A DNA stretch of 60,032 bases, filler included, from Dugesia japonica (Eukaryota), in NCBI GenBank assembly GCA_001938525.1. It is 5 parts of 5 records of this genome, joined end to end, with 100 filler letters (N's around TTAATTAATTAA, not from the genome) between each part and the next. Parts side by side here need not be neighbours in the genome. Positions count along the whole stretch, not along the records: positions 25,610 to 39,875 come from MQRL01644319.1; 4 more parts are not named here. The stretch is one strand, 5' to 3'. The position numbers and the translations under genes were made by a program. The notes beneath the pieces were generated by a model. It saw only the letters and a list, made by a program, of their open reading frames with translations, did not search any database and had not been told where the DNA came from. Below, one piece after another: positions 796 to 39,875 of this stretch (the stretch's first letter is position 1; each line of letters opens with the position of its first letter).

Positions 796-1254
796 TTTCA
801 TTCAGATTACAAAGCGGATTTTTGCAGCTTATTTCCAGAAACTGATGTAGTATTTGGTAGCCTTGGTAATTTTTTTCATATTGACATAGAACAGCATTCT
901 GGAGGTTGGACAGCTAATCCTCCATTTCTCAATGATGTAATGAAGAAATTAGCCATTAGAATCAATGAAATTCTAGATGATGGCCATAAATGCTATTTCT
1001 TTTGCACATTCCCTTGGTGGGAAGATGACGAGGGTTGGATTATTCTCAACAACTCTCGCCACCTTCTAAGGAAGTTTAATATATCTCCTTATCATTTCAA
1101 TATTGAGGATGCATATGGGAAGAAGTTTATGCCAAAGATGTCCATAACTCTATTTGTTGTAGGGGAACTGCCCACAGTTGCTAAACTCATTGAACTAGGT
1201 AAAATCCTTGTAATTAACCCACAAGATATGTTGCCTAAAGAATGTCCTTGGTAA
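796..1254 (+). CDS. PCIF1/CAPAM-like cap adenosine N6-methyltransferase catalytic domain (5' incomplete or last exon)
   Basis: The frame of ORF 940..1254 is open from 796 and reads DFCSLFPETDVVFGSLGNFF...GGWTANPPFLNDVMKK...YFFCTFPWW. This matches the PCIF1 motifs CSxFPDTDxxFGSxG, ANPPF and FxxFxPxW. Possible splice acceptor tttcattcag ends at 805. Confidence 0.75.
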   Translation, partial: FHSDYKADFCSLFPETDVVFGSLGNFFHIDIEQHSGGWTANPPFLNDVMKKLAIRINEILDDGHKCYFFCTFPWWEDDEGWIILNNSRHLLRKFNISPYHFNIEDAYGKKFMPKMSITLFVVGELPTVAKLIELGKILVINPQDMLPKECPW

Positions 1255-5619: not shown

Positions 5620-7950
5620 TATTGAATTGTCCATTGTTCTCAAGGACCTGTTCCCATCTTCCAGAAAGCAAACAAATTCCTCGTTCATAAAAACTAAATA
5701 CATCTGATAACAATGAAACGGCTTCTCCCAAACATCCGCTTAACAATAACACCAAATCAGTAGACCTTGATGAAGATATTCTATCTGTTGATCTTTTTAT
5801 CAGCNTAAGTAAAATGCTGCGTCACCTAGCAACAAAGAAGATAGCTCCGTTTTCTCTGCCACAAGCTCTGAGATTGAAGCTAATCAAAATAAAAAATCTT
5901 CTAAACAAGAAAACATAGGCATAAATGATGTTCAATTATCTGATTCAACGGACAATGAAAATTTTTCTGACAACCTGAGCATTAAAAGCAAAAATTCCGA
6001 ATCAGACATATGCACTTCTAACAGATTCCAAAGAGAAAGAAAATATTCATTACATTATTCTACGAAAGAACAATTCTCTCGCCACACAGTGAAACTACTT
6101 CTCTCAAGATTACACCATCCAAAGATCACTCAATCCGAAGACTTTGATGAGGATCTTCTATCAGCTAGTATGTTAACCTCCAAAAGAAAAAAACCTATCA
6201 TCTATGTTTGAGACGCAAATTCCGATGATTTGTTAGACTGTTGCAAAATTCACCTACTCTAGAAATAGGTGTTGATAAAAAAAACAACTACTCAACTTTA
6301 TTAACAATACGCAATTTGTTCTCGTTGATGACCTAGACAATCAGCCAGATCCAAAAAAGATCAGCAGGCAATCATCAGCTCAAGAAGTAGTTGAAACAAA
6401 TGATCAACTTACGAATGCGATACAAAATATCCTTTTCACAGAAGAATATAACAAATACGCATTAATTGAAACAAAACCTATCAACAATGAAAAATGTACT
6501 CCCAAAAAAGCAAGGAAGTTGACGTCTTACGATGTGAAGACACTTGGAACTATTTATCCAAACAAACTTATTGCATATCAAATAAGCATCGAAATAAAAT
6601 TAAAATGCACACATCGAGCACTCACTGGATCCTTTTCTATACAGACAAAGATAGATCCTGATTGATCCAGCTTCAACATACCTCTCAGTCAAACCGATAG
6701 ATCTTCATAGTAAGCTTAACAATATTATTTCCAATATTTGCTGTCCTAAAGAAAACATCAACCTAACAATTACAACATCATACAATCATCCTACTCAAAC
6801 AAGTAACCATGATTGTGAGATTTTTGTGATACATTTTACAAAATGTCTCCTCAATAACAAAATCTTTACTGTACNNNNNNNNNNNNNNNNNNNNNNNNNN
6901 NNNNNNNNNNNNNNNNNNNNNNNNNNNNNNNNNNNNNNNNNNNNNNNNNNNNNNNNNNNNNNNNNNNNNNNNNNNNNNNNNNNNNNNNNNNNNNNNNNNN
7001 NNNNNNNNNNNNNNNNNNNNNNNNNNNNNNNNATAGAAAACTCAAAATAGTTCCTAACAAGCTTATCATTAAAAAGGCAAAACACACTTTTCACAAGATC
7101 AGAGACGATCTAACTGAATCTAAAGAAGGCACAATGAACACAGCCGAAACGCTCAATGAAGCATCTAGATCAGTGTTTCCCATCGTAANGTCTACGTGAT
7201 ATTCAGGCTTTTGAGGATTTTCACACTACCAACGAAATAATATTAAATGAAATCAAAACTGCTTTCAATAGCACTTCAAAATCCTTACTCTGGATGTATA
7301 GAATCACTTACTCCGACTGGCTTAAAATCGACCGTAATCATTTTTTTACAAGCTCCTTTTAACAGAATTCTAAAGATTAAGAATATACGTGGTCAATGAA
7401 AAATGATTTATACTAATATCATCCTGAAATCGGGTAGAGAAGAGAAATCTCATCAAGTCTCATCTTGGATTCCTATAACAATTATTAATATATCATACCA
7501 GTTATTTGTAATTGTTATTAACAACATATTTTTCTGTAGTATTTCAGTAGAAAAATTATTCTCACCAACTCAAAATGCGTTTAACATATCAGATGGATGT
7601 ACACATTACAATTCTACAATACAATTAATTAGAGAGAAGGCTGAGCGCGAGAAATGAAATCTTAACCTTACTTGACTTGATCTGGCAGATGCCTTTGGAA
7701 GTATTCCTCATGAGTTGCTCTGGTACATGCTCAAACTAATAGGAATACATCATGAGACCATTAATCTTCTTAATGAGTTATACAGAGACATTTACTATTC
7801 TTACACATGTTTAGACATAACAACAAGCGATACAAAAATCATCAAAGGAGTCAAACAAGGAGGCCCTATGTCTATGACGCTTGCTAGCCTGACCATTGAA
7901 TTTATTATTAGAGAAACCTCAAAAGCATTTCCTATGAAAATAAATTATAA
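5620..7950 (+). mobile_element. Degenerate non-LTR retrotransposon, R2/NeSL-like: Ulp1-type cysteine protease upstream of RT
   Basis: STHWILFYTD (~6617-6646) and HPTQTSNHDCEIFVIHF (~6787-6837) match the Ulp1/C48 HW and QxNxxDC motifs. RT motifs are WIPITI, LDLADAFGSIPHELL and KGVKQGGPMS. Confidence 0.8.
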
Positions 7951-24069: not shown

Positions 24070-24517
24070 ATATCCAAATAATAACACATATTAGTTTAGC
24101 ATCCCGAAGTGACATTGTTCGATTTGTCCACGGTAATGTGATAGCAATAAAACGACTTGTTGTCAATCCAAGAAGCATTAAGGATGCAGTATACAATGTA
24201 ACCTGTTTTAATTAAAAATATATTGATGTTTATTAATTGAGAGTACATAAAAACCCTACATAAACTGCATAATTCAATAATTTGCATAAAACTATTCCGA
24301 AAATCCATTTTTGAAATATGTAGTGCATCATTGTTATTGGAACTGTTGATAATAGAAAAACCATATCCGATAATGCAAGACCAATACAGAATATTTCATA
24401 AACTTGTTTATTTTTACACGGAACCAAAATGAGTATAGCAAATGCATTGCCTATTATTCCTACGGCTGAAATCGATATTGGGAAAATTAATAATTGATTG
24501 AAATGATATGAACTCAT
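24070..24517 (-). CDS. Class A (rhodopsin-like) peptide GPCR, exons covering TM1-TM4 (24517-24260 and 24202-24070)
   Basis: GIIGNAF (TM1), GLALSDMVF (TM2), WIFGIVLCK. A 57-nt GT-AG intron at 24259-24203 restores the frame YAVY|VTLYTAS...TSRFIAI. A GTGAGT donor follows IIWI. Downstream exons were not identified. Confidence 0.85.
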
Positions 24518-25442
24518 ATTGGGATGGATATACAACTGTTATCGTTTTGAATGTTTACAACAAACATGCTTAAATTTCAAAGTCATTTTAATTAACCAAT
24601 TAAAATCATTCAATATATGATTGGTTTAAATTACAAATTATAATTTTCATTGATTTTTAATTATCATTTTGAAAAATTAAATAAATAAAATAAATAAAAT
24701 TCAATTTATAAAACATGTTTAGTTAACATCATGGATAAACATAATCTAAAAATAATTTTTCGCCAGTTTAATATTATACAGGCATTTAAAATAATATGAA
24801 TTAAATTTTTCTCAAATTATTTAGCTTGTTTTCTTGCTATCAGCCAAAAGCTTGTTAGAGTATTAATGAAGAATTAAAAAAGAATAAAAATTTTTATTCA
24901 TATTCTTCATCATTATTTTTTTTTGAAAATTTCAATATAGTACAAAATATCAAATAACTACTCGTGATTTTTAATCTTCAACATCACTGCTATCGGCTTA
25001 GTAACGAATAATTGTTTACAAAAGAAAACGGAAAGATTATCTGTAAAGTATTTGTAAAAACATTATACAACAGCAGCTAATAAATATTCTTTTTAAAACT
25101 TCTGATAAATTTACCACATTTGTCATACTTTAACTACTCGATAGTAAGTTTAAGTAAATTGCTTTTTTTGTTCATTTTATATTGAAACAATTATATAAAT
25201 TAAGAACAATTGTCTTTTGCATAAGTTTATTAATTTTAATAAAGTTCAAATGTGAAATTGTATTAAAATGAATGATTACATAAATATATCAAAATATATA
25301 ATTGAAGTAAAAGAAAACCAAAGATCCGATAAAATGAATGCATAGATGAGAGTCACTGCTACTTTTCGGAAATGTGGTACACTTAATAAACACTTAAACT
25401 AAATTAATCTACTAAATGCAAATCAAAATACACTGTTATGAC

Positions 25443-25609: not shown

Positions 25610-26780
25610 TTTCCGACTTCCGTGGCCGACCTGGCCCTCTATGTTCCGTCGCAGTGGGCTCGGTGCTTGCGGCCGGTGTAGCTTCTTCTTTTATCGCTGC
25701 TTTTTTGCACAAGTTGGTGTGATATATTTTTGGTTTCTCCAACAGGTTTCCTTTCTTCCGCACTTTGAGATTTGTTTCCGTTACTTCGATTACTTCATAA
25801 GGTCCTTGCTATGGCCTTTTTAATTTCGATGTTGAACCGACACAAATGTCTGGTAAATTGATTAATACCATGTCGCCATTTTTAACGGAATGTTGCACTG
25901 CTGATTTATCGTGTAAATCTTTATAGCTCTCCTGGTAGAATCCTACATTCTCCTTGGCTTGTTTCATATTTTCTGCATGGTCTCCTTGAAATTTTCAGCA
26001 AAATCCGTTTCATCTTGATATTGTGTTATCGGTGGCTGGAATTCCAAGTCAATAGGCATGTTACATTCTCTCCCATACATAAGATCAAATGGCGTGTATT
26101 TGGTGGCAGGGTGCACACTCATTCGATATGCGAACAGGCATAGTTGAATATGTTTATCCCAGTTATTTTGTTCCTTCTGCGCGTAACTAGACAGCATGTT
26201 GATCAAGGTTTTATTGAACCTCTCTGTTAATCCATCCGTTTGAGGATGATAAAGTGATGTCCGTAACTGGTGTATTTTGAGGAAGTTCGATACTTCTGCT
26301 AATATATTGCTCATGAAATTTTTTCCTTGGTCGGTCAATATTTTCTTTGGTGTGCCATATCTGCTATTAAATTTTCGTACCAGAATATCGGCTATAGTTA
26401 TGGCCTTTTGATTTTTCATTGGAAATGTCTCTGGGAATTTAGATAAATAATCCATTATGGTAAGTATTTAAATATTTCCGCTTAGCGTTGGTGGTATAGG
26501 TCCAACAACATCCATAGCGATGATTTCCATTGGTGCGGCTGGTACCGCGATTGGTTTCAATAATGCTTTTACTCTTTTGCCTGTTCCTCTTCTGGCGTCA
26601 TATATTTGGCATTTAGCAATCCATTCCTTCATAGATTCTGTCATATGCGGCCAGTAATATTTCTGTCTTAATTTTGATTCGGTTTTCTTGTGGGACATAG
26701 GTCCTCCTAATACACCATTGTGATATTGTTCAAGTAGCTTATCCCGTCTTGCCTTAGGAATGACTAGCACAGTATTATCT
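25610..26780 (-). pseudogene. Integrase of the giant element, with C-terminal AT-hook-like GRPRK
   Basis: YHNGVLGG...KYYWPHM...CQ, IAMDVVGP, ILTDQGKNF, YHPQTDGLTERFNKTL, HRGPGRPRKS. Confidence 0.92.
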
Positions 26781-27049
26781 CCGTCCTGAGCTGTCAACCA
26801 TCCTTTAGTAATTGAATAACGCCCTCCTTTTTTCTTTAAATGTACCTTCATCTTGGGTTCACATTCTAACTTCTCCAAGTTATAATTTTTCATATATTTC
26901 GTGATGATCTTGATCTCCTTGTCATCCGCCTGTGCTTGTTTCAATCCATCGAAGTTTTTGTCTTCAGCGAATATAAAGTATACCATTCCTACTTTTTTCT
27001 CCAACAATTCTCGAAATGTAAAGGTTTCTGTATCATCAGGTGTGTTCTC

Positions 27050-27880
27050 CATATTTTCCGGTCCACCGATTCTGGACAGGCAATCAACATTCGAGTTTGC
27101 TTTATCCGTTTTAAACTTTAACAGGGGGCAATACTCCTGCATTGCCAGTTGCCACTTGGCTATTCGATTCCATCGTAATGGTTTCTGGGCCATAAACGTG
27201 ATTGGTAAGTGGTCCGTATAGATTAACACCTCGTGACCATGTATAAGTGATCGAAAATGTTTAGTGGCTTTCACAATAGCCATTATCTCTCGTTCTGTTG
27301 TGCTGTAATTTAACTCTGCTCCTTGAAATCTTTTGCTAAAATATGCAATTACTCTTTCCCTTCCTTGTTCATCCAATTGGCTTAATATGGCACCCATGGT
27401 GTAACCACTAGCGTCAGTGGCTAAAATAAATGGCTTTTTGAAATCAGGATGTACCAGAATTGGTGCAGTTAGTAACTTATCTCNNNNNNNNNNNNNNNNN
27501 NNNNNNNNNNNNNNNNNNNNNNNNNNNNNNNNNCCCCATATAAATGCAGTATCTTGTTTGACCAATTCTTGCATGGGTTTTGCGATTTTTGCGAAATCTT
27601 TGATAAAATTTCGATAATAGTTTGCGAGTCTTTAAAACTCCAGTATCTTGAGTACACAATTAGGAGGTGCTAAGTTCCTGATTTTCTCCGTGTTTCTTGG
27701 GTCTGGCTCTTTTCCTTTATCTGATATCAAATGGCTCAAATATGTCACTCGCATTTGGTGGGTTTCAGTTTTAGATTCCATTTACGTAATCGTACAAACA
27801 CACTACGCAAGTCATTAAGGTGCCCTTCAAAGGTTGGCGAATAAATTAATAGATAGTCGATATAAGCCATACATTGAGAT
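27050..27880 (-). pseudogene. RT C-terminal half (N-terminal half deleted), connection and RNase H
   Basis: CMAYIDYLLIYS (degenerate YxDD), LKLKPTKC, ANYYRNFIKDFAKIA, FILATDASG, NYSTTEREIMAIV, IYTDHLP. Confidence 0.9.
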
Positions 27881-28289
27881 ATGCCGTGGGTTACGTAATT
27901 CATGATCTTTCACATGGGTATGCCTCTCTAATGATTGTAATCGTAACGTTGAAAAGTTTAATATACCGTTTTTCATCAGTACGCGAAAAATATATGTTCC
28001 TAGAATACACTGTCCCATCAGGTTTTGTTTTCCATGTTGGTTCTCGTTCTTGGAACCTTATCCAATCGTTCCTTATCAAGGTGGCTGTATTGGTCATTTT
28101 CTGACGGTCTTGATTTGAATTGTTTTGTTCATTTCGATCAGTTGGTCACTGTCGCAGCCGGTTGGGTGTTGGCGGATTCCATTGTTGTGCTCGTTTCTGT
28201 TGGGTTATTATTCGATTTTTCTGATATCCTACCGGTGTATACTCTTGATCATAGTTTTCTCNTATCGTTAGTTTTCTCAAATCCAATAT

Positions 28290-28580
28290 TCCCTCCGGAC
28301 AAAGGCGTGGCAAGAGGTCCAACCCCAATAGACAGTCGAATGTTAATTCGTTCATTATTTGTAGTTTATGCCAGAAACGGATTCCGTCGCTTTCTATCGC
28401 ACATATTGCTTCTCCAACGGGTGATACTTTTTCTCCAGAGGCTGTGATGATAACTCCTTTAGTTATAGTTATTGAAGTAGTCGATAATCTTCCAATATTC
28501 TCTTATCTACTAACGTCGTGCTTGCTCCTGTATCGATAATGGCTATTACCCATCTTACGTCTATATTTATCCTTTTTTGT
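28290..28580 (-). pseudogene. Retroviral-type aspartic protease
   Basis: IAIIDTGASTT, IITASGE and FDCLLGLDLL, across small frameshifts. Confidence 0.88.
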
Positions 28581-28762
28581 AGTAGTTTTGCCCTCTGAGA
28601 AATCATCATACATACGGTCTGGGTTACTAATTTTTCATCCTCCGTGATTTGGTTATTCGGAGAACGCAGATTTTGGTCAGGCATTCTTCTGTCAATAGTT
28701 GATACATTGTTCTCTGTTAATAATGCCACATTGGAAGCTTGTGGTGGATTTATATATGAATT

Positions 28763-31105
28763 TTACATGTGACCCGATGCCCATACCTGTTGTGGTGGTT
28801 GATTCATGAGTTGCCACCCATGTTGTGGGTAGGCGTTGAAGTAAATCTGTTCTAGTGCTGGTGTATTTTCACTTCCTCCGAATTTTAACGCGTTTCTCAG
28901 TCGTTGTATTTCACTGATTTTTTCGTATTGTTGTCTTTTGAACTCTGCCTCATATTCCATGGCAGTTTTATAACTGGGTACGTGGGGTGTTCTACTGCTA
29001 TCTCCTCTATCGTCATCACTGCTGTTACTACTTTCGTCTTTGTTCTTAAATCTTTCTTTAAATTGATTGAAATATGATATTTTCTTTTTCGCATTGCTTA
29101 TTTCTTCGCACAATAGTCGGAGTTGCATAATAACTTCCTTGTCTGATCCTCTGATTTTTCCGAGTTTCCGAATAAATCGTTTTACTCTGTCGATGTCTTT
29201 GAAGTGGCTATTAAGCACCATAGTTTTGGCTAGAAATGGAAATATTCCCGTTATCATTTTCCAATTCACCTTCTTCTCTCTTTTATATATGTCAAAATAT
29301 GCAAATAATTGAGTAATCACTATTCGTGTTACCGAAATTATCAGCATAACTCCCAACAATCCTGCCATTGCTTGTCCAAATATGATGAATCGTCCCCACA
29401 TCTTCCGCATGACGTTTTCTGTGGCTTTTTGAAAGTGGTCCGCTGATAATAGTGCGTCATAATTTACTCGACCATCTATGTTGGTCCCACTAGTTAACTG
29501 CACTATATTGGATAGGATTTGCATCCTTCGGACTGGAAACAGCATATATTCCCTGGCTTTCTCTAGGTCTTCCCTGCTGTAGATTCCTCCTTTGTTTACG
29601 TCAATTGGAGTGAATTGCATACCTCCATTTAACCGTAACATGGAGAATTTCCGTGGGTTCGATTCCTACTGTCATTCGTTGCGGAAATCGTATCCATGAA
29701 CCATCGGTCATTATGTATTGCGGTCCAAATACTTTGGAGCAATTTATGATATTTGGCTTATATCCCAATGGGGATATGATTCGAGTAATTGGTTGCACAT
29801 AACGTTTTTCGTTGTTGTGGATAATTTCTATTTCATTGTAGCAGTTTTTTGGATTAGACGAGAACTCAGCATCTATGGCTTTGCATTTGTATAGATACAT
29901 TACTTCTCCGACCACTCGACCGAATTGTCCTTTTTCCAACGGGAGTAGTGGAGTGACACTATCTGGGTTTGTAACTGCCATTGCTAACTTTGTCTTTAGT
30001 ATTTCTTTATTTAATGTGCAGTCATTTTGAATGAGATCGTGGTAAATTCGTCCCATGGTGTCCTGCATTCGATGGAATAAGTTGTCCATTTTATTATTGG
30101 CGTATAGATGCAATTTAATATCTTGTGACATTACTGCGGCTTGCGCTGTTTTTATTCGATGTTCTGATACGAATATTCCTTTATAGTTCGTTTTATACAC
30201 TATTTGACCACACTTTGACATCGAATTGCCTTTAATTAACCGGATGGTCTCATCCTGTTCCGAATACATTAGCACTGTAGGCGTTGTGTGCCATTGTTGA
30301 TCGTATGATCTTGGACCTGACCTTATCGTTTCCTTGAGATGATCTATCCTATCTTTTAGATTACCCTCCTTTGGGTCTTGATCAATAGGTGTTATAGCGC
30401 GGTGTCCTTGGTATTCATTGAACATTGCTTCCTTTAGGTGTGCTAACTTACAATCCTGGTGATCTACTTTGTTTGTCAATGTTGATGTACCTGTATTACA
30501 TGATCCATCTGCTGCTTTGCAATACGACCTTCCTTTCATAGTCAAATCTATGCCTCGTATTCCTTGAGTTCTACTGTATAGGTTTCGATTGCTACCGCAT
30601 ACTGCCAGACCTTTCCTCGTATAGTGTATGTACCATATTCNNNNNNNNNNNNNNNNNNNNNNNNNNNNNNNNNNNNNNNNNNNNNNNNGTCAATTACATG
30701 CCCTTTCTTGGCGATGACTTGAGTCCCATGTTTGATGGTGATCTTTCCTGTGGCAAATCTTTCATCACATTGTTGTCCAGTTAAATGAACGGGGTGTCTC
30801 ACTGTCCCTGGATCAATTATTGAAGTGTAGCCTTGATACCCACAATGAAATATAAATGTTTTTACCGTTACCGCACACTCGCGTACTTGGGCCTTATAGT
30901 AATCAGATTCTTGATATAAATGGTAGATGGAATTATTACGTAGTGAGATTTTCTCCGGGTTTGCATCGGGGCATTNNNNNNNNNNNNNNNNNNNNNNNNN
31001 NNNNNNNNNNNNNNNNNNNNNNNNNNNNNNNNNNNNNNNNNNNNNNNNNNNNNNNNCCATCATTAAGAATAACAAGAGTATTGTAGTGGTTAACGCTTGC
31101 CAAGA
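28763..31105 (-). pseudogene. Envelope glycoprotein, chuvirus-G-like (class III fusion) with signal, Cys-rich ectodomain, TM and tail
   Basis: Signal WQALTTTILLLFLMM. Ectodomain motifs LYQES...ECAV...FHCG, DCTLNKEILKTKLA, GRVVGEVMYLYKC, CYNEI, QPITRII, NCS...PQY, GIYSREDL...MLFP. TM GRFIIFGQAMAGLLGVMLIISV (~29398-29294). Frameshifts at ~30548 and ~29640. Confidence 0.8.
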
Positions 31106-31213
31106 GTTTCTGCGAGGCCAACGTGTCAATCCATTCTCGATCTCATTTAACTGATCCCGAACAATCCTGATTACCCTAGTTGCATTTTCGTGAGATGACT
31201 GAGGCTTAGCGCA

Positions 31214-31606
31214 TATGGCCTCAATAAACTTTTTCCACCCCCCATGCTGCTTTATTAACGGCACTATCTTCTTCTGCATTAGATCCACTATTGGTAATTT
31301 ACTGAGAATGAAGTTTTTTGACGGCTTGCTTCTAGCGATTGATAGATGCGTTTGATTAATCAGATGTGCTATAGATACTACTATTCTTCCCTTTGTTGGC
31401 TGATCTTGTAACAATTCATCCATTACACCTTCTAAATTATCTCTTGCACTATGACTAGTACCTTTAGTTGCAGGGAATTTCTTAATAGCTGCTTCTATTT
31501 CTTTGGCCAAAGGTCTGAGATTATCTGATAGTTGAAATTTCCCATTCCATATTTTTAATTCCAGATATAGCATTAGCAGTAACTGCCGTATTACTACTTC
31601 GGTTGG
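31214..31606 (-). pseudogene. Bcl-2-like domain within the polyprotein
   Basis: BH3-like LRPLAKEIE, BH1-like VMDELLQDQPTKGRIVVSI (ELLQDQPTKGRIV core at ~31417-31379) and BH2-like LIKQHGGWKKF (GGW at 31243-31235), in canonical order and spacing. Confidence 0.75.
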
Positions 31607-32328
31607 TATGTCATCATCTGTCGAATTTTCGTGGTATCTATCTTGTGATACCGTTGCTAATCGCTTAGTTTGATGAGTTATGGATGTGGCTAATCGTTTT
31701 TGTTTCAATGCTTCTTCCTCCTCTGGATTTCCCGGAGGTTTTGTTCTTGGTCGACCTCTATTACGAGGTTGCGTAATTGTTTCCGCATCCACTCGGGTAC
31801 GTACTGGTTTTGGCGGTACTTCTTCTTCTTCGGTTTCTATTGGATTTTCCATCTTTACGTGGTGGTTTGTATCCATTAGATCATCCATTACTGAGGATGG
31901 TAATTCTTTTGCTATTCTACTTAATATTGTTGATAATGGTTGGTCTTCCAATACGTCTTCCTCTTCCAAGTTAACCTTGCTAGGGTCGTATTTTTTACTT
32001 TGGGCTGGCTCTTTAACCTTTATTTCTTCACTTTTCCTAGTTGGAGGAGAATATTTTGTAATTTGCAACTCGTTTTCATCTTCCTCTGATTCGTCTGCTG
32101 ATGGTGATCCGAATATTTCGCGTTCCCATTCTTGGCTTGTTTTGGGAGTTTCCTTGGTTTCCCGGGAACTTCAGCGCTCCCAGATTGATCTGTGGTAGGT
32201 TTCAATATTTTACTAGCCGCTAATTGTGTGCGGTGTTTATATGCTTTTAGCATACTTGAGGTCTCTCCCATTATTGGTCTGGTTTTATCTGCTGCTTTAT
32301 AAGGATCTGCGTCTTTTCGAGTGAGAGT

Positions 32329-35300
32329 GCCTCCTAATTCGGGAAAAATCCCCAACGTTTTATGTTTAATTAAATCTATTTTCATTAGTCCAATTGGTAT
32401 GGTATCTTCCACTAGTCCACCTTCATCCACGAGTTTGTATGGTGGTTTAAATGGCTACTTGTCTCGTAGGTGTTTTACCGTATTATATACCGGTATTTTA
32501 ACCGTGATTTTGTCCCCTTCTGGATAGATTATTCTGAATTTAACTTCGAATGGCGTGGTTTGTCCCATCTCCGCTTTCCACCATTTAACCAGAATTTTAT
32601 TAAACTGAATGGGATCCCATGTATGAGATATTTTAATGGCCAAGATTAATCGTCGCAACTTTCTAAGATCTTCTACTGCCAGATCTTGTTGTAAGGCTAT
32701 ATTGATCGTTGTATGATTTCTAGCGTTATTAACTTATCACCTACTAGCAACTCGAACAATTTCGGTAAATTGTCTTCTGGTTTCTCGTCTTTGACCGGGG
32801 TGTTGGTTAGAGCTGCTACCATCTCTACTCGTTGTTTATTTTGCTCTTGTTTAGGGAGCTTGGCTCCGGCGAATACTAATGGGTGTATCTCTTCTATGTA
32901 ATATTCCACTACTTCTCTAGCTTCTTGTTTCCATATCTCCTCCGAGACCCGTGGTCGTCGTCTCTTCTCATCCTTTGCTGTTACGTAGATTTTTAATTTA
33001 TTACCTGGCCAAACCCTCATATATTTCACTGGTAATCTCATTTGATCTAGTTCTATTACCTGGTTGTAATAAAGTACTATATCATCTTCCTGCAATAATG
33101 GTTGCATTCTGGTTTCTTCTTCTTCAAGGTTACTCTGTTGGTTCATAAATTTTATAATCCTTTTCCGCAACTTAGACCATGGTTTGATCATTTAACCCTG
33201 CCACTGGATTTCGCTTTTATCCGGAAATTCGATTGTTACTGCAACGGCTTCATTGGTTATCATTCGAACTGCTTTATTTAATATTGCATCCATTATGTCT
33301 TCAGGCATTTGACTTATAGCTCGTAATTGATTTAGCTTTAGAACTAATTGAATGACTTTGNNNNNTCTTAATAGTTCCAAGTTTTCTTCCAAGGTTAAGA
33401 GTATTTTCATTATTACTCGCGCCAGACTTCCCCATGTTTTACTGTCTTCCCATAACTCAATATTTATCTCCATTGTTCTGTCATCGACTACTTCGAATAA
33501 CTGTCCACTGTTGATTTCTTGTTCGTATAGTTCCTCTAGTTGTTGTAATACTTCCCCCATAGATTTAACTGGGCCTGGAATGTAATCGCCTGGTTTTTGG
33601 ATTTGAAGAAATGTATTTTCACCAGGTCTTAGCCCTACGTCCATTAGATGTTGTTTTCCTTCAAATTTTATGGAGAATCTCAAATGGTCGGTCGTGATTG
33701 CATAATTTTTCTGTTGGTCAGCTATATCTAGTGATTCTATAATTTCCTGTAATTCCCCAGCTGATGTACTATTAAAATGTGGTATATGCATGACAGCCAT
33801 ATCCGGTTCCTTCCTTGATTTCTTGTTTCGTGTCAGATATTCTATTGTGACCTGAAAATTCTCTCCTTTGGCGCTTGTCTTCACTGCACCGATATACGGC
33901 TTGATTACTGATTCCCATTTAGCACGTTCTTCTCTTGCTATTTCAGTATACTTTGCCAGATCCATTAGTAAATTTAATGCCTTCCAAAATGCTGTCCGAG
34001 GTTTTCTTTCCTGGAAATAACAGAAATCAGAAATTATCTTCGATATCCACTCTGCCTGCTGGGAACTGAAAGGACCAGCGAATTCCTGTTTAAATGGTAT
34101 CAACCGAGGTTGGCTAATATCCTCTGAGCATCCTTCCTCCTGGTCCTCTTCATCGGAGGTTAGGTCCATGGTGTCATGGTCATTACCCCGAACCATGTTT
34201 ATCTGGGCTTTGTTTTCGCCATAAGTGTTTATAAGTCGTTCATTCTCTACCGGTAGTATTTCTTGTAGATATAGGCTCATCATAATTAATATGAATTGAT
34301 CGGTATCCGGCGTTTTTGGTATCGGTATGTCGATGGTCATTTTACGTGATGTTAATTTAATGTCTGTGATCTCCCCTGGTTTGATATCATGTAGAAAGAT
34401 GTGGTCCCCTTTCTCGGCTTATATAATCATTGTTGCTCCTGCCTGCATTTTATAGGACTTGAGCGATTTTGGCCATAGCCATTTCTTGATTGTTTTTATA
34501 ATATGGTTGATCGTTAATCCTTCCAGCGTTATCATATCTACCTTTTTTATGCTTCTATCTTTATTAAGGAGGCTGACTCTGATAGAATAGTCGGATATGG
34601 TAGATGTATTTTGCACTTCCTCTTCGTATAAGTTTTTCTCTTTCCACCATTGTGCTCGAGCCCACAAGCTGAGTTGTCCATATATTGCCAAATCCCGTAG
34701 ATTATTAATCATTTTCCAATATACTTTGATATTCACGATTGGTCGAGTTTCTCGGGTTACTCTTAGTAGATCATTGATAGCGTGAAACGTGGCGGATTCC
34801 TCCGTTATTGGTTTCGTATAATTCATTCGAATATCACGTATTGTTGGTGTGCCTTCTGGGAATACGACGGATTTTGTAGTAATTATTGGCAAGTTATCGA
34901 TATTCTGTATTTTCTGATTCTCTTTTACTTGTTCCTTTATGCCATACAATACTTCGGATACGTACAATTCTGTTATCTCTTCCATTCGCTCCTCGAGATC
35001 TGGTGATTGATCCGTCCGCGGCTCCTCGTCTACATCTAACTCACATATTTATCCAGGCTTTGCGTTGCATTGAAATATGTGTTTGTCCTCGTCGTCGGTC
35101 TCAACGAATTTGCCATTTATGAACACAGGTACCATGTTTAGTCCTTGTTCTCGCCACTTATCGGTAATGGCATCCATTAAATCCATCATGGTTATTCCTT
35201 GTGGTTTTAATCTACTATATTTAGTCAGTTCCTGTTCATGTTTATCTATATTTAAATATAATTTATAATCCCGAATTTTGGTAGTTGCCAATATTTCTTC

Positions 35301-36130
35301 GGCGTACTTCTGTCTAATCATGAGCCACTGGTTCTCGATTTCCTCGATAATTTCTAATCCATCATATATGTCGTAAATTCTATTCATTATCATCCAATAG
35401 GTTTCTCGAGGTAATTTTTCCTTCTCTATCTGTACTCAGTTAACTATTTCTTCCACTTTACGCATTGCTACCACCTCTCTTGATGGCATTTGCCGCATTC
35501 TTATCATGTTGCATTTGCCTTCTCTTCTCTCTAATCTTTGTTTGAGAAAATCATAACGCGTCATCAACAACTGTTTTCTCTCCTCCATTGTTAGTTTGTC
35601 TTTCTTCCCAAGTACTGTGGAAAGTATTTCGATTTTAATCGGTTCTAACCCTTGTTTATATAGGTACTCCATTTCTTCCATGATTTCTAAAGCTGATCTT
35701 CCGGTTTTTGCTATCCAGATGTCGTAGTCGATACCAGGGTGTTTGTCCAATACTACGATTTCAATGTCCTCTCCTGTTTTTACTCCAAAATCATATAGAT
35801 GTTTCTTTCTGGCGTTAAAATATACAATAGCACTTGGAGTGCATACATATTTATCGGTTATGCATGGATAACCGGCTTGCTTAAGCGCGGCTTCCAGATC
35901 TTCTACCATTAATCATGTGAGTGTCAGTTTCATATTTCCCTCCGGGTTATACAGCCATACTTAGTAATCCGATAATCTCATGCTGGATATTACCCACTCG
36001 GAATGCACTAGTAACCATTCTGTCCAATCGCTTTCGCACTCGGTGATTAGTTGTATCACTTCCAATAATTCAACCAATCGATTTGTCAACTTTAGGTATA
36101 CTTCTTTCTTTATCGTATCATTAGTAGACG
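32329..36130 (-). repeat. Six diverged protein repeats (~190-250 aa each): helical domain + ubiquitin-like fold
   Basis: Recurring LYxxEI, (Y/F)WxxxNxLxD...W and DYxV motifs. Unit ends are HLYDFGVKTGEDIEI, HIFQCNAKPG*ICEL, HIFLHDIKPGEITDI, HLMDVGLRPGENTFL, VKYMRVWPGNKLKI and EDTIPIGLM...FPELGG. Confidence 0.65.
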
Positions 36131-36149
36131 CTCGAGCTCTAGAATAGGT

Positions 36150-39100
36150 AGAGTTTTCTCGATTAGCAGTGGAGTTTTTGATCCGAAGATTAATAGATTA
36201 TATGATAGGGCTGGTGATATTGAGAGTATTTGAGCAGCTTATTATCTTTTTGCAGAAGTTAAATGACAGCGAATCGTATTTTCTGATATNNNNNNNNNNN
36301 NNNNNNNNNNNNNNNNNNNNNNNNNNNNNNNNNNNNNNNNNNNNNNNNNCTTTAATCATTTTGGTATTTTTAATATGATTTAAGAAGTCCTTGTGATTTG
36401 AGATAAGAACTGAGCCAAGAGGGATATCTTAGTCAGTAATATGGTTGAGAAAGATATTAGCCTGATGTGTGAGAATTTTCCCATTGTAAGATGATTTTTG
36501 AATATTACCAGGAGTAAAACCGATTTACAGGCTGAAGAGAAAGTAGTGGAAGTAGCTACTATTATTCCGGATAGCACATTTGCTATAGAATTTATGGAAT
36601 TAGAGCAGTTACAAGACGCTCAATCTATTATAAATAAATTAGGAAACGAGATCTTTTCAGTTCCCAGATGGGATGTAAACATTAAAAGCATATTGAGTTG
36701 GATGTTGACATTACATACTTCAACTGAAGTTCTAAAAGAGGTAATACCATTAATATTACTGTTGGTTGATAAACCAAGCAGTTATCAAAATGAAATTAGA
36801 ATTTTAATTAGAAAAGATAGGGAAGCCATGAGGCATGATCCTGTCAGACAGGCCCATTTTATTGTTGACACAAGAGTACCCAGTGAGGTGGTACCAAAAA
36901 TAAAGAGATATTCGTGTTTCACAAATGTGTTAAAACTGAAAGCGGGTATCGGAATAACATACCCACAAACGTGTTTGATAGTAATTTGGGGTAATCAAGT
37001 TGATGATCATGTAATCATGTTGGATGTTTACAAACTAAAACTACGCTAGTCAATGTGTTGATAGTAGAGCCATCTGATCACCATTGGACTATGTTGCGCT
37101 TGCCGGAAGTATCCGAGGTTGCACAGAATCAAGAAGCATCAATAGTGTAAGAGACGGAAATGTATATAACTCGACAAAATCAAGAAATGCCAGTGGATTT
37201 GGATGAGCCAGAACCGGTCAATTTACTGAATATACCACAAAAAATATTCTCTGAGAAAGCAAGTGATACCTGAAATGTACAAGGCAACAATCTGGGAGCA
37301 TGCACCTCCAGAGAATTAGAAAAGAGAAGACAACCAAGAGTTAAAAAGAGAGGTAGACCGAAAAAGAATACTAATTCTTAGCCGGTGGACATAAATCCGA
37401 GCCAGGGCATTAAAAGCCATATTTGGTGAAATATATCAAGGGAATATAGGGAATGAACCAGCAATGTCAGATACATGCTGTAAAATTCTGCAATTAATCA
37501 GAGTATTAAAACCCGAGTTAAAAATTGAAAAAGTTGGACGTTGGGATCCAAGCAAATTAGCCTTGTCACTAAAGACAGTTATTAGAAAGTAACTAAGGAA
37601 GTTGCCTGATAAAAATAAAAGGAACACAATTCATACGTTACCTGCTCAAGGTATTACAAATGGGTGAGTTTGTTTTCAGAGCAAACTGGCTGGGATATTC
37701 ACATATCCACAAGCTTATTCGCGTATCGTAACAAAGCACATTCAATTACATGTTATTTACCGTTTTATTTGATGGATCTGAGAAATAGCAACATGCCGGT
37801 GGATCTTGAATTTCAAACACCATTATCGCAGTACCTTGATGAGAGCAAGTATCTGCTCGAATTGAAAGATAGGATGCAAATAACTTGGCCAAAAGCTAAC
37901 TTAAGTATTAGATATTCGCAAAAAGGAATGAAAGAGGCATTTGATAAAAAGACTAAACAGCACGAATATAAAATGCAAGATTTAGTAATGCTCGAAGGGC
38001 ATAATAATACAAAAGGTTTGTCACTGAAATTGATACGAAATTATAAGGGACCTTATGAGGTACTAAAAACGACAGAAACTAATTTAGGCTTACAATTGTG
38101 TTCTAACAGAAAAACGGAACCTATACTAGTACATGTAAATAGGTGCAAAAGGTATTATACAATTGATGAGCAAGTTAAAAACAAAGAGACAAAAGTCAAG
38201 GAAAAGACAAAAAGGTCTTCAACAAACATTCAAGAATCTTGCAATAGATATCCACTAAGATCACAAACGTATTCGCAAACATTGATAATTATTGCAATAA
38301 TCAGTTGTCTTAATGTGGTCAGTGCGCAGATAGAATTTCAACCCAAAGCAGTACCTATGGAGAAAATAATATTACGTAGATGGTATTACAAATTCTCTAT
38401 AAGGACAACGGTCGAATTGACATTTAATTACCACATAGGGTTTATTTCCGATGGAANAGTGACAAATTACAAGAAAGAACACAGGAATAGAGAGGTTAAT
38501 ATAACTAATTTAAAGGCTAACTATACCCATTCTATGCAGTGTTGGTATCAGTAATTCAAATCCGTATATTGGGAGACTGTACGAACCACCGGATGGTATC
38601 TTACGACTTTGCCAATAAACAAAGTAGTAATATCGTACAAAAAATCATGTCTATTTTTCACGAAAGTACATACAGAGNNNNNNNNNNNNNNNNNNNNNNN
38701 NNNNNNNNNNNNNNNNNNNNNNNNNNNNNNNNNNNNNNNNNNNNNNNNTATCGGGAGAGGGTTTTTTGGACTCAACTCTGATATAAAAATTAGATATTAT
38801 CGACAGCAAGAGGGATCAACAGCCACATATATGGTATGCTCAGAAAAAAACTTAGTAAAAAACCAATTTCCAGAAAATTAAATGCAAATTTCTGGAATAG
38901 AATTAAAATATATCAGATAAATGTTAGCTTGGAAAAGGCAGCACTTAAAATTGCCTTAGCACAGTGTAATTGTTCTACTTCGACTCCGTTAAATAACAAG
39001 GCTAACAGCAAGATGCAAAAACGTATCCAGATGATAGTAGGTGGACCCTGAACAAAGGAATGCAGTACCATCGTACATTTGCTCTATCTTCCAAAGTTTA

Positions 39101-39700
39101 TGCAGACATTGAATCCGGCGATCCTTTTGTAATTTCGCACCGATACGGAACAAATGTTGCTCTTGACCCATTGGCTATGGATTCAATTATAGAAGAAGGT
39201 CCTAGCCTTAGAACGGAAGACCTGTCTAAAGTGGACACTTTAAGTAAATCTAGAGATCCAAATCTTTGGCAAAAACAAGTTGCCAAGTTTAAATGACCAA
39301 TTCAATATTACTGTGATCGTCCGGTCCAACACACAGCTATTACGGAATCCCACCTCGATAAAAATCGTTTGGAAGTCAGTGGACAACCATTTATCAATTC
39401 GCCATCTGTGTATGTGTACGAACATACAGAAGTCCCTTTCGTTGTAACTCCCAGATTTACCAAGCGAAAGAAAAAATTAGTAAAGGAAATTCTTAATAAA
39501 GTAGAAGAAAATTCAAAAAGGAAGAAATTAATTCCTTGTGTATCCAAACAGAATAAAGAAACTGAAAAGAACGAAGAAGGAATTTCCTAGAAGAAGTCTC
39601 AATCAAAGAAGAAGAAGATCCTCAAGTGAGCACTAGTCCGTCGAGGCTATGATCCGCTCTACTCAACATCTCGAACACTAGCATGTAATGATATGAACCG
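36150..39700 (+). mobile_element. Second, diverged giant Gypsy-type element with a large internal deletion: Ubl-like, AT-hook, start of Bcl-2-like region // integrase C-terminus, signal-peptide ORF
   Basis: KRGRPKK at 37346-37366. ILQLIRVLKPELKI...LRKLP resembles IRQLLLMLYLELKI...IKKFP of the minus element. WDIHISTSLFAYR...NMPVDLEFQ resembles WDKHIQLCLFAYR...NMPIDLEFQ. Also GPY and VHVNRCK. Confidence 0.75.
37664..38554 (+). pseudogene. Integrase C-terminus fused in frame to a signal-peptide-led unknown protein
   Basis: YKGPYEV and VHVNRCKRYY, then RYPLRS-QTYSQ-TLIIIAIISCLNVVSA-QIEF. Confidence 0.7.
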
Positions 39701-39875
39701 TTCGAGCAATATTCGANAACAATCAATAAACAATTAATCTGATTTTTTTTGTGATCCAATTGCAGTTTATATGTATATATTTGACATTTTTAATTGTGTG
39801 CTATGTGATTTGAACTATTAATCATCATTAGTGTTTTGTACAAATAATATATTTTACTATTCATCGCTTATTTTT

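Follow-up and report, generated by a model that had tools for sequence, protein, structure and literature searches.

The window is a joined stretch of 60,032 nucleotides, filler included, from Dugesia japonica (assembly GCA_001938525.1). Positions 25,610 to 39,875 of it come from MQRL01644319.1, and this part bears a decayed, 5'-truncated Ty3/gypsy element fragment of ~10.6 kb, filed here as Burro-like. Burro/GYPSM1 elements are giant gypsy-like long terminal repeat (LTR) retrotransposons of planarians, with Gag, cargo domains and pol in a single huge open reading frame (ORF) (PMC6431247). On one strand, the element reads in the order ubiquitin-like array, acidic linker, Bcl-2-like domain, Env, protease (PR), reverse transcriptase (RT), RNase H and integrase (IN). 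Very probably, the array is cargo carried within the giant polyprotein of a gypsy element of the Burro type, and the copy seen here is a dead and 5'-truncated member of a multi-copy family. Element and array are laid out as follows.

25620..36200, minus strand: Burro-like Ty3/gypsy element, decayed and 5'-truncated (from domain order, GC content and contig depth)
35640..36122, minus strand: unit 1; amphipathic helix 35982-36122, ubiquitin-like part ~35742-35981, second helix; stops at 35963 and 35915
34920..35423, minus strand: unit 2; helix, ubiquitin-like part, helix; stop at 35051
34242..34745, minus strand: unit 3; helix, ubiquitin-like part, helix; stop at 34421
33489..34013, minus strand: unit 4; helix, ubiquitin-like part, helix; stop-free, with an insertion ahead of the central helix
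32871..33461, minus strand: unit 5; helical stretch and possible ubiquitin/SUMO-like domain ~32964-33266; stop at 33194
32329..32733, minus strand: unit 6; helical stretch and 76-codon ubiquitin-like domain 32329-32556 ending in a di-glycine; one stop

Repeat structure of the array

The initial annotation had described a six-fold tandem repeat of a helical plus ubiquitin-like module. Judged by its sequence, the array comprises four homologous modules and two further candidates across 3.8 kb. Six-fold homology is rejected by the repeat statistics, which support four units (leave-one-out E 8e-17 for unit 3) but are not significant for units 5 and 6; unit 5 resembles units 1-4 by eye only, and unit 6 lies in a different reading frame from units 1-5. 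Both parts of the module are present, together with a third conserved part, the helix after the ubiquitin-like part; all three are conserved in units 1-4. The units are 17-23% identical to the first alignment row, their tails of 60-75 residues show no conservation, and the repeat period is ~235 residues. The alignments indicate that units 1-4 go back to one module, a ubiquitin-like domain between two helices, that was duplicated in tandem long ago. The idea of an old array of beta-grasp domains thus holds for four units, with moderate support for the fold, but not for six homologous ones.

The entire frame of units 1-5 contains no GG; the sole di-glycine closes unit 6. A recurring protease-site motif, a post hoc pattern, was unsupported (5 matches vs 2.3 expected, P 0.076).

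The element copy is decayed, with in-frame stops and frameshifts. An alternative genetic code was rejected: the seven stops are four TAA, two TGA and one TAG. As stops of all three kinds are accompanied by frameshifts, decay is the simpler reading.

Fold of the ubiquitin-like parts

Units 1-4 probably adopt a ubiquitin-like (UBL), or beta-grasp, fold, as the predicted models suggest. The unit 1 model has the order beta-beta-alpha-beta-beta-beta-beta (predicted local distance difference test score, pLDDT, 47); 35 of the top 50 rows among its structural neighbours are beta-grasp, and most of these are ubiquitin or UBL chains. In the unit 2 model (pLDDT 54), the flanking helices align to helical hairpins, and in one low-confidence model the second helix packs on the first. 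A helical-hairpin stalk formed by the two flanking helices is proposed tentatively. Foldseek gave no match at E <= 0.001 for either predicted model.

The beta-grasp claim is favoured by the unit 1 model and its neighbours and by the comparison of unit 6 with ubiquitin, but finds no counterpart in profile searches. None of the six units had a Pfam ubiquitin-family match, PF11976 (Ubi2/SUMO-like) gave no match among the Pfam searches despite the ubiquitin-like candidates placed before Bcl-2, and a hidden Markov model (HMM) of 96 distinct viral ubiquitins, used with hhalign, gave no significant local match to the units. The domain of unit 6 appears to resemble ubiquitin in sequence scoring, unlike units 1-5, which fail the sequence tests against ubiquitin. 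No residue-level match to ubiquitin binding surfaces could be demonstrated. The global score of unit 4 against ubiquitins stood at 15/300 shuffles, and the best window of unit 5 ranked 30 of 11,124 in the scoring against ubiquitins.

Searches for relatives of the array found none among 1.84 billion protein representatives or among longer proteins (2,335 candidates), and none of 29 pattern matches in metagenome contigs was confirmed. PDB sequence searches returned nothing for units 5 and 6, and the ESM Atlas no usable match for unit 4. FlgK, the best PDB sequence match of the unit profile, was read as a shared strand-strand-helix pattern and was lost once unit 5 was added. A BAG or UBA identity for the helices was discarded, there being no such Pfam match.

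Elsewhere in the window, 6,037-6,216 (plus strand) has the top ubiquitin-like score (global 38.8; HMM E 0.22; tblastn E 0.05). It lies close to gypsy fragments and is perhaps a decayed ubiquitin relic with stops, on weak evidence.

Remainder of the element

The other parts of the element are as follows.

31622..32170, minus strand: acidic, proline-rich linker with a basic RGRP motif (from sequence)
31154..31621, minus strand: Bcl-2-like domain (PF00452, E 2e-4, 22.3 bits, under the curated cut-off of 31.4)
29200..30973, minus strand: Env, a mononegavirus/chuvirus-type fusion glycoprotein in three frames (PF24664, E 2.5e-11, 2.1e-35 and 4.2e-20)
28266..28570, minus strand: aspartic protease remnant with a DTG motif (from sequence; RVP_2, E 0.16, weak)
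27601..27900, minus strand: RT remnant, profile positions 148-193 of 205 only (RVT_1, E 1e-6)
25620..27481, minus strand: RNase H, then integrase zinc finger, core and C-terminal part (RT_RNaseH, E 9.5e-36; Integrase_H2C2, E 1e-13; rve, E 3.1e-8)

The GC content of the element block is 0.37-0.39 vs mostly 0.21-0.33 elsewhere in the window. The Ty3/gypsy pol order PR-RT-RNase H-IN is present, with PR weak. No Pfam match to a dUTPase-like domain between PR and RT was found in two of the three minus frames of 27,900-28,261; as the PR-RT interval is too short for a dUTPase and the front of RT is absent, the copy looks deleted there. Against viral contigs, the RNase H-integrase part matched one unrelated-looking gypsy contig (34% identity). 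Neither a flanking LTR pair (self-blastn) nor gag was seen within the window. Near 36.2 kb the copy stops and contig coverage falls; an opposite-strand element starts at ~36.3 kb.

The Bcl-2-like domain, matched by PF00452 with E 6.7e-4 in another profile search, and the first Env piece have a stop-free frame in common (ORF 30548-32170), with a short unreadable stretch inside. The Bcl-2-like ORF had no PDB sequence match and no usable ESM Atlas match, and no relatives of Env were found among longer proteins (792 candidates). Env has a C-terminal membrane segment at ~29,315-29,371 (hydropathy 2.24). Between the Bcl-2-like domain and Env, 31,058-31,120 (minus strand) combines a cluster of basic residues (RWPRR) with a hydrophobic run. 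This run, near 31,070-31,090, has 12 readable residues, and the 19-residue hydropathy maximum of the ORF is 1.09. A putative Bcl-2 tail anchor in this run may double as an Env signal sequence.

Copies and transcription

Contigs from two runs with two different organism labels, X2 and X8, were mapped on 25.6-39.7 kb, giving 19,094 and 5,145 contigs, respectively. The majority are <95% identical (14,652 of 19,094 in X2), and the array is covered as well as pol. Many diverged copies of the element thus exist, in two organism labels. Summed contig depth in X2, which is not copy number, is 2,830-24,826 across 25.6-36.0 kb, array included, vs 254-1,316 past 36.0 kb. One X2 contig jumps over 32,119-36,061, the entire array, with 23 letters on its shorter side; it may be an array-less deletion copy or an artefact.

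In two poly-A RNA runs, of which about a quarter each was examined, 116 and 10 reads matched at >=85% identity, and 0 at >=99%. Over the array there was depth in two bins only. The element copy looks transcriptionally silent in the two samples.

Comparison with known systems

The element probably belongs to the Burro group, judged against the published description only. In Burro, a Ubi2/SUMO-like motif sits between MATH and BCL-2, and the Env, a relative of mononegavirus fusion proteins, lies in frame after BCL-2 and before protease (PMC6431247). By that description, the one-strand order BCL-2-like, Env, PR, RT, RNase H, IN is the same here, with ubiquitin-like candidates at the place of the ubiquitin/SUMO-like motif; the weakly matched BCL-2-like domain precedes Env, which lies between it and protease rather than in a separate 3' ORF. 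Also alike are the many copies, the AT-rich host DNA (>70% A/T in S. mediterranea; PMC11410931) and the stop- and frameshift-bearing decayed copies, such as are reported in one Dugesia species (PMC6431247). Published Burro elements are >30 kb, with LTRs and an N-terminal Gag bearing CCHC knuckles; none of Gag, MATH, BIR/RING, ankyrin, dUTPase and LTRs is visible in the present 5'-truncated copy. The published description names the Ubi2/SUMO-like motif with no word of tandem copies or flanking helices (PMC6431247), whereas the present array has four homologous modules plus two candidates.

The array units share with integral (type II) UBL domains the predicted beta-beta-alpha-beta-beta-beta order over ~75-90 residues, the tandem occurrence and, in units 1-5, the absence of a di-glycine, which sets these apart from conjugatable (type I) modifiers; FAT10, BAG1, the USP7 tail, OASL, Dsk2 and midnolin are structural neighbours of the unit 1 model. 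The array differs in being retroelement-borne, in the lack of detectable sequence similarity in units 1-5 and in the two conserved flanking helices, which match no known family. Unit 6 recalls pestivirus polyproteins, in which inserted ubiquitin is cut by host ubiquitin hydrolases (PMC8310069): in both, a di-glycine-ending ubiquitin-like unit stands immediately ahead of a downstream product. However, the pestivirus polyproteins took up host ubiquitin recently and in nearly unchanged form, and its cleavage has been demonstrated, whereas unit 6 is highly diverged and broken and its cleavage would be inferred.

Elements of this class, and a ubiquitin-like motif at the array position, are already known (PMC6431247). 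Among the papers searched, none described ubiquitin-like domains in tandem, or the helices that accompany them, for Burro or any other gypsy element; published Burro domain maps may already show the array. As far as checked, the four homologous helix-UBL-helix modules and the terminal di-glycine UBL appear to be new.

Possible roles of the array

In a working element, the array would be translated within the polyprotein, between Gag and the Bcl-2-like/Env/Pol part, and would be made in the cytosol, before the Env segment that enters the membrane. As units 1-4 lack a di-glycine, they would be integral UBL domains, not conjugated modifiers. In the host, integral UBL domains serve for docking to the proteasome, to p97 or to enzymes of the ubiquitin pathway. 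The likeliest single job, although short of an even chance, may be multivalent docking on host ubiquitin-proteasome factors, tuning the stability of element proteins and, with the Bcl-2-like domain, keeping the host cell alive. Four UBL domains in a row would add avidity, for a decoy or for lifetime control of the element's own proteins, which would fit the anti-apoptotic cargo beside them, and the decoy or adaptor role for the ubiquitin/proteasome system suggested initially is plausible. By the pestivirus analogy, the ubiquitin-sized unit 6 with its terminal di-glycine is a candidate site at which a host deubiquitinase might cut the array from the Bcl-2-like/Env part, although such a cut is less likely than not. 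As a whole, the reading that combines element cargo, UBL modules, docking on host ubiquitin-proteasome factors and a cleavage candidate in unit 6 is somewhat favoured. The repeats, the order of domains, the decay and the many related copies are demonstrated, and the fold in part, whereas processing, binding and function are inferred.

The main rival keeps the same element and fold but makes the modules passive folding or solubility helpers or processing spacers of a very long polyprotein, which grew in number through template switching and do not act as decoys. The low identity among units, their unconserved tails and the lack of binding-surface matches speak for it, but four modules retain all three parts despite deep divergence, in an element with apoptosis and ubiquitination cargo, and passive modules seem unlikely. 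Next comes a proposal in which units 1-4 belong to a different beta-grasp class (PB1, UBX, RA-like) or have some other small alpha/beta fold, serve to scaffold or polymerise the polyprotein, and leave unit 6 as the only ubiquitin-derived one. PB1 and UBX chains tie with UBL chains among the top unit 1 neighbours (Z within 1), 14 of the 50 neighbour rows are not beta-grasp, and the failed ubiquitin tests of units 1-5 and the FlgK match point the same way. The prevalence of ubiquitin and UBL chains among the beta-grasp rows, and the Ubi2/SUMO-like motif published at the same Burro position (PMC6431247), make this proposal improbable.

Two further explanations concern the origin of the array. Host proteins carry tandem UBL domains, USP7 and OASL tandem UBL chains are among the unit 1 neighbours, and the element bears other host-type cargo, so the entire array could stem from a host gene with several UBL domains (USP7-tail-like or similar), without expansion inside the element. 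The lack of a host-type relative among the protein representatives or in Pfam makes this very improbable; to our knowledge, no host protein matches the helix-UBL-helix period. That the array is an independent host pseudogene, with a retroelement inserted into or beside it, has a negligible probability: frame changes do part the array from the Bcl-2-like/Env frame, but strand, GC and skew are the same, there is no intergenic gap, contig coverage is as high as over env and pol, and the array position matches Burro (PMC6431247).

Neighbouring features

A second, less covered element at 36,350-39,700 (plus strand) lies head to head with the Burro-like element and is possibly another cargo-bearing gypsy fragment. 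Its ORF 36495-37046 (plus strand; 184 codons) has no Pfam match and no detectable relation to any array unit; the end of this ORF ranks 10 of 11,124 windows against ubiquitins. The second element also has an RGRP motif, an integrase C-terminal part 52% identical over 67 residues to that of the Burro-like element, and a signal-peptide-like stretch ahead of a further ORF without a clear Pfam family.

Other features of the window are a PCIF1-family (cap m6Am methyltransferase-like) coding piece at 796-1251 (plus strand; Pfam E 5.3e-19), either a host exon or mobile cargo; a rhodopsin-family G-protein-coupled receptor exon at 24,236-24,538 (minus strand; Pfam E 1.7e-9), ~1 kb beyond the 3' end of the element by window coordinates but in a different part of the joined stretch; and ordinary gypsy pol fragments at 2.4-5.6, 16-18, 19.2-21.7 and 50-56 kb, mutually 70-90% alike, some as inverted pairs.

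Implications for Burro elements

Burro elements are unusual for their apoptosis and ubiquitination cargo (PMC6431247). Burro1 is raised upon PIWI knock-down (PMC8532177) and is reported, at second hand, to protect stem cells from apoptosis via RING-BIR cargo and so to support their survival (PMC13465017). Until profile searches were made, roughly half of the Burro polyprotein had no annotation (PMC6431247); the tandem UBL array and the helices that go with it account for some of this blank. Two testable parts are named: the multivalent UBL module, and the di-glycine site as a candidate for cleavage by the host. A bolder proposal, which we consider a long shot, is a poly-UBL comb in a Burro lineage: at least four ubiquitin-like heads, each borne on a helical-hairpin stalk from a family not yet described, would form a multivalent decoy for proteasome or p97 receptors, and a terminal di-glycine UBL would let a host deubiquitinase release a Bcl-2-like protein joined to Env. 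If true, the comb element would steer host-cell proteolysis and apoptosis from one polyprotein, beside the inhibitor-of-apoptosis (IAP) cargo reported for Burro1.
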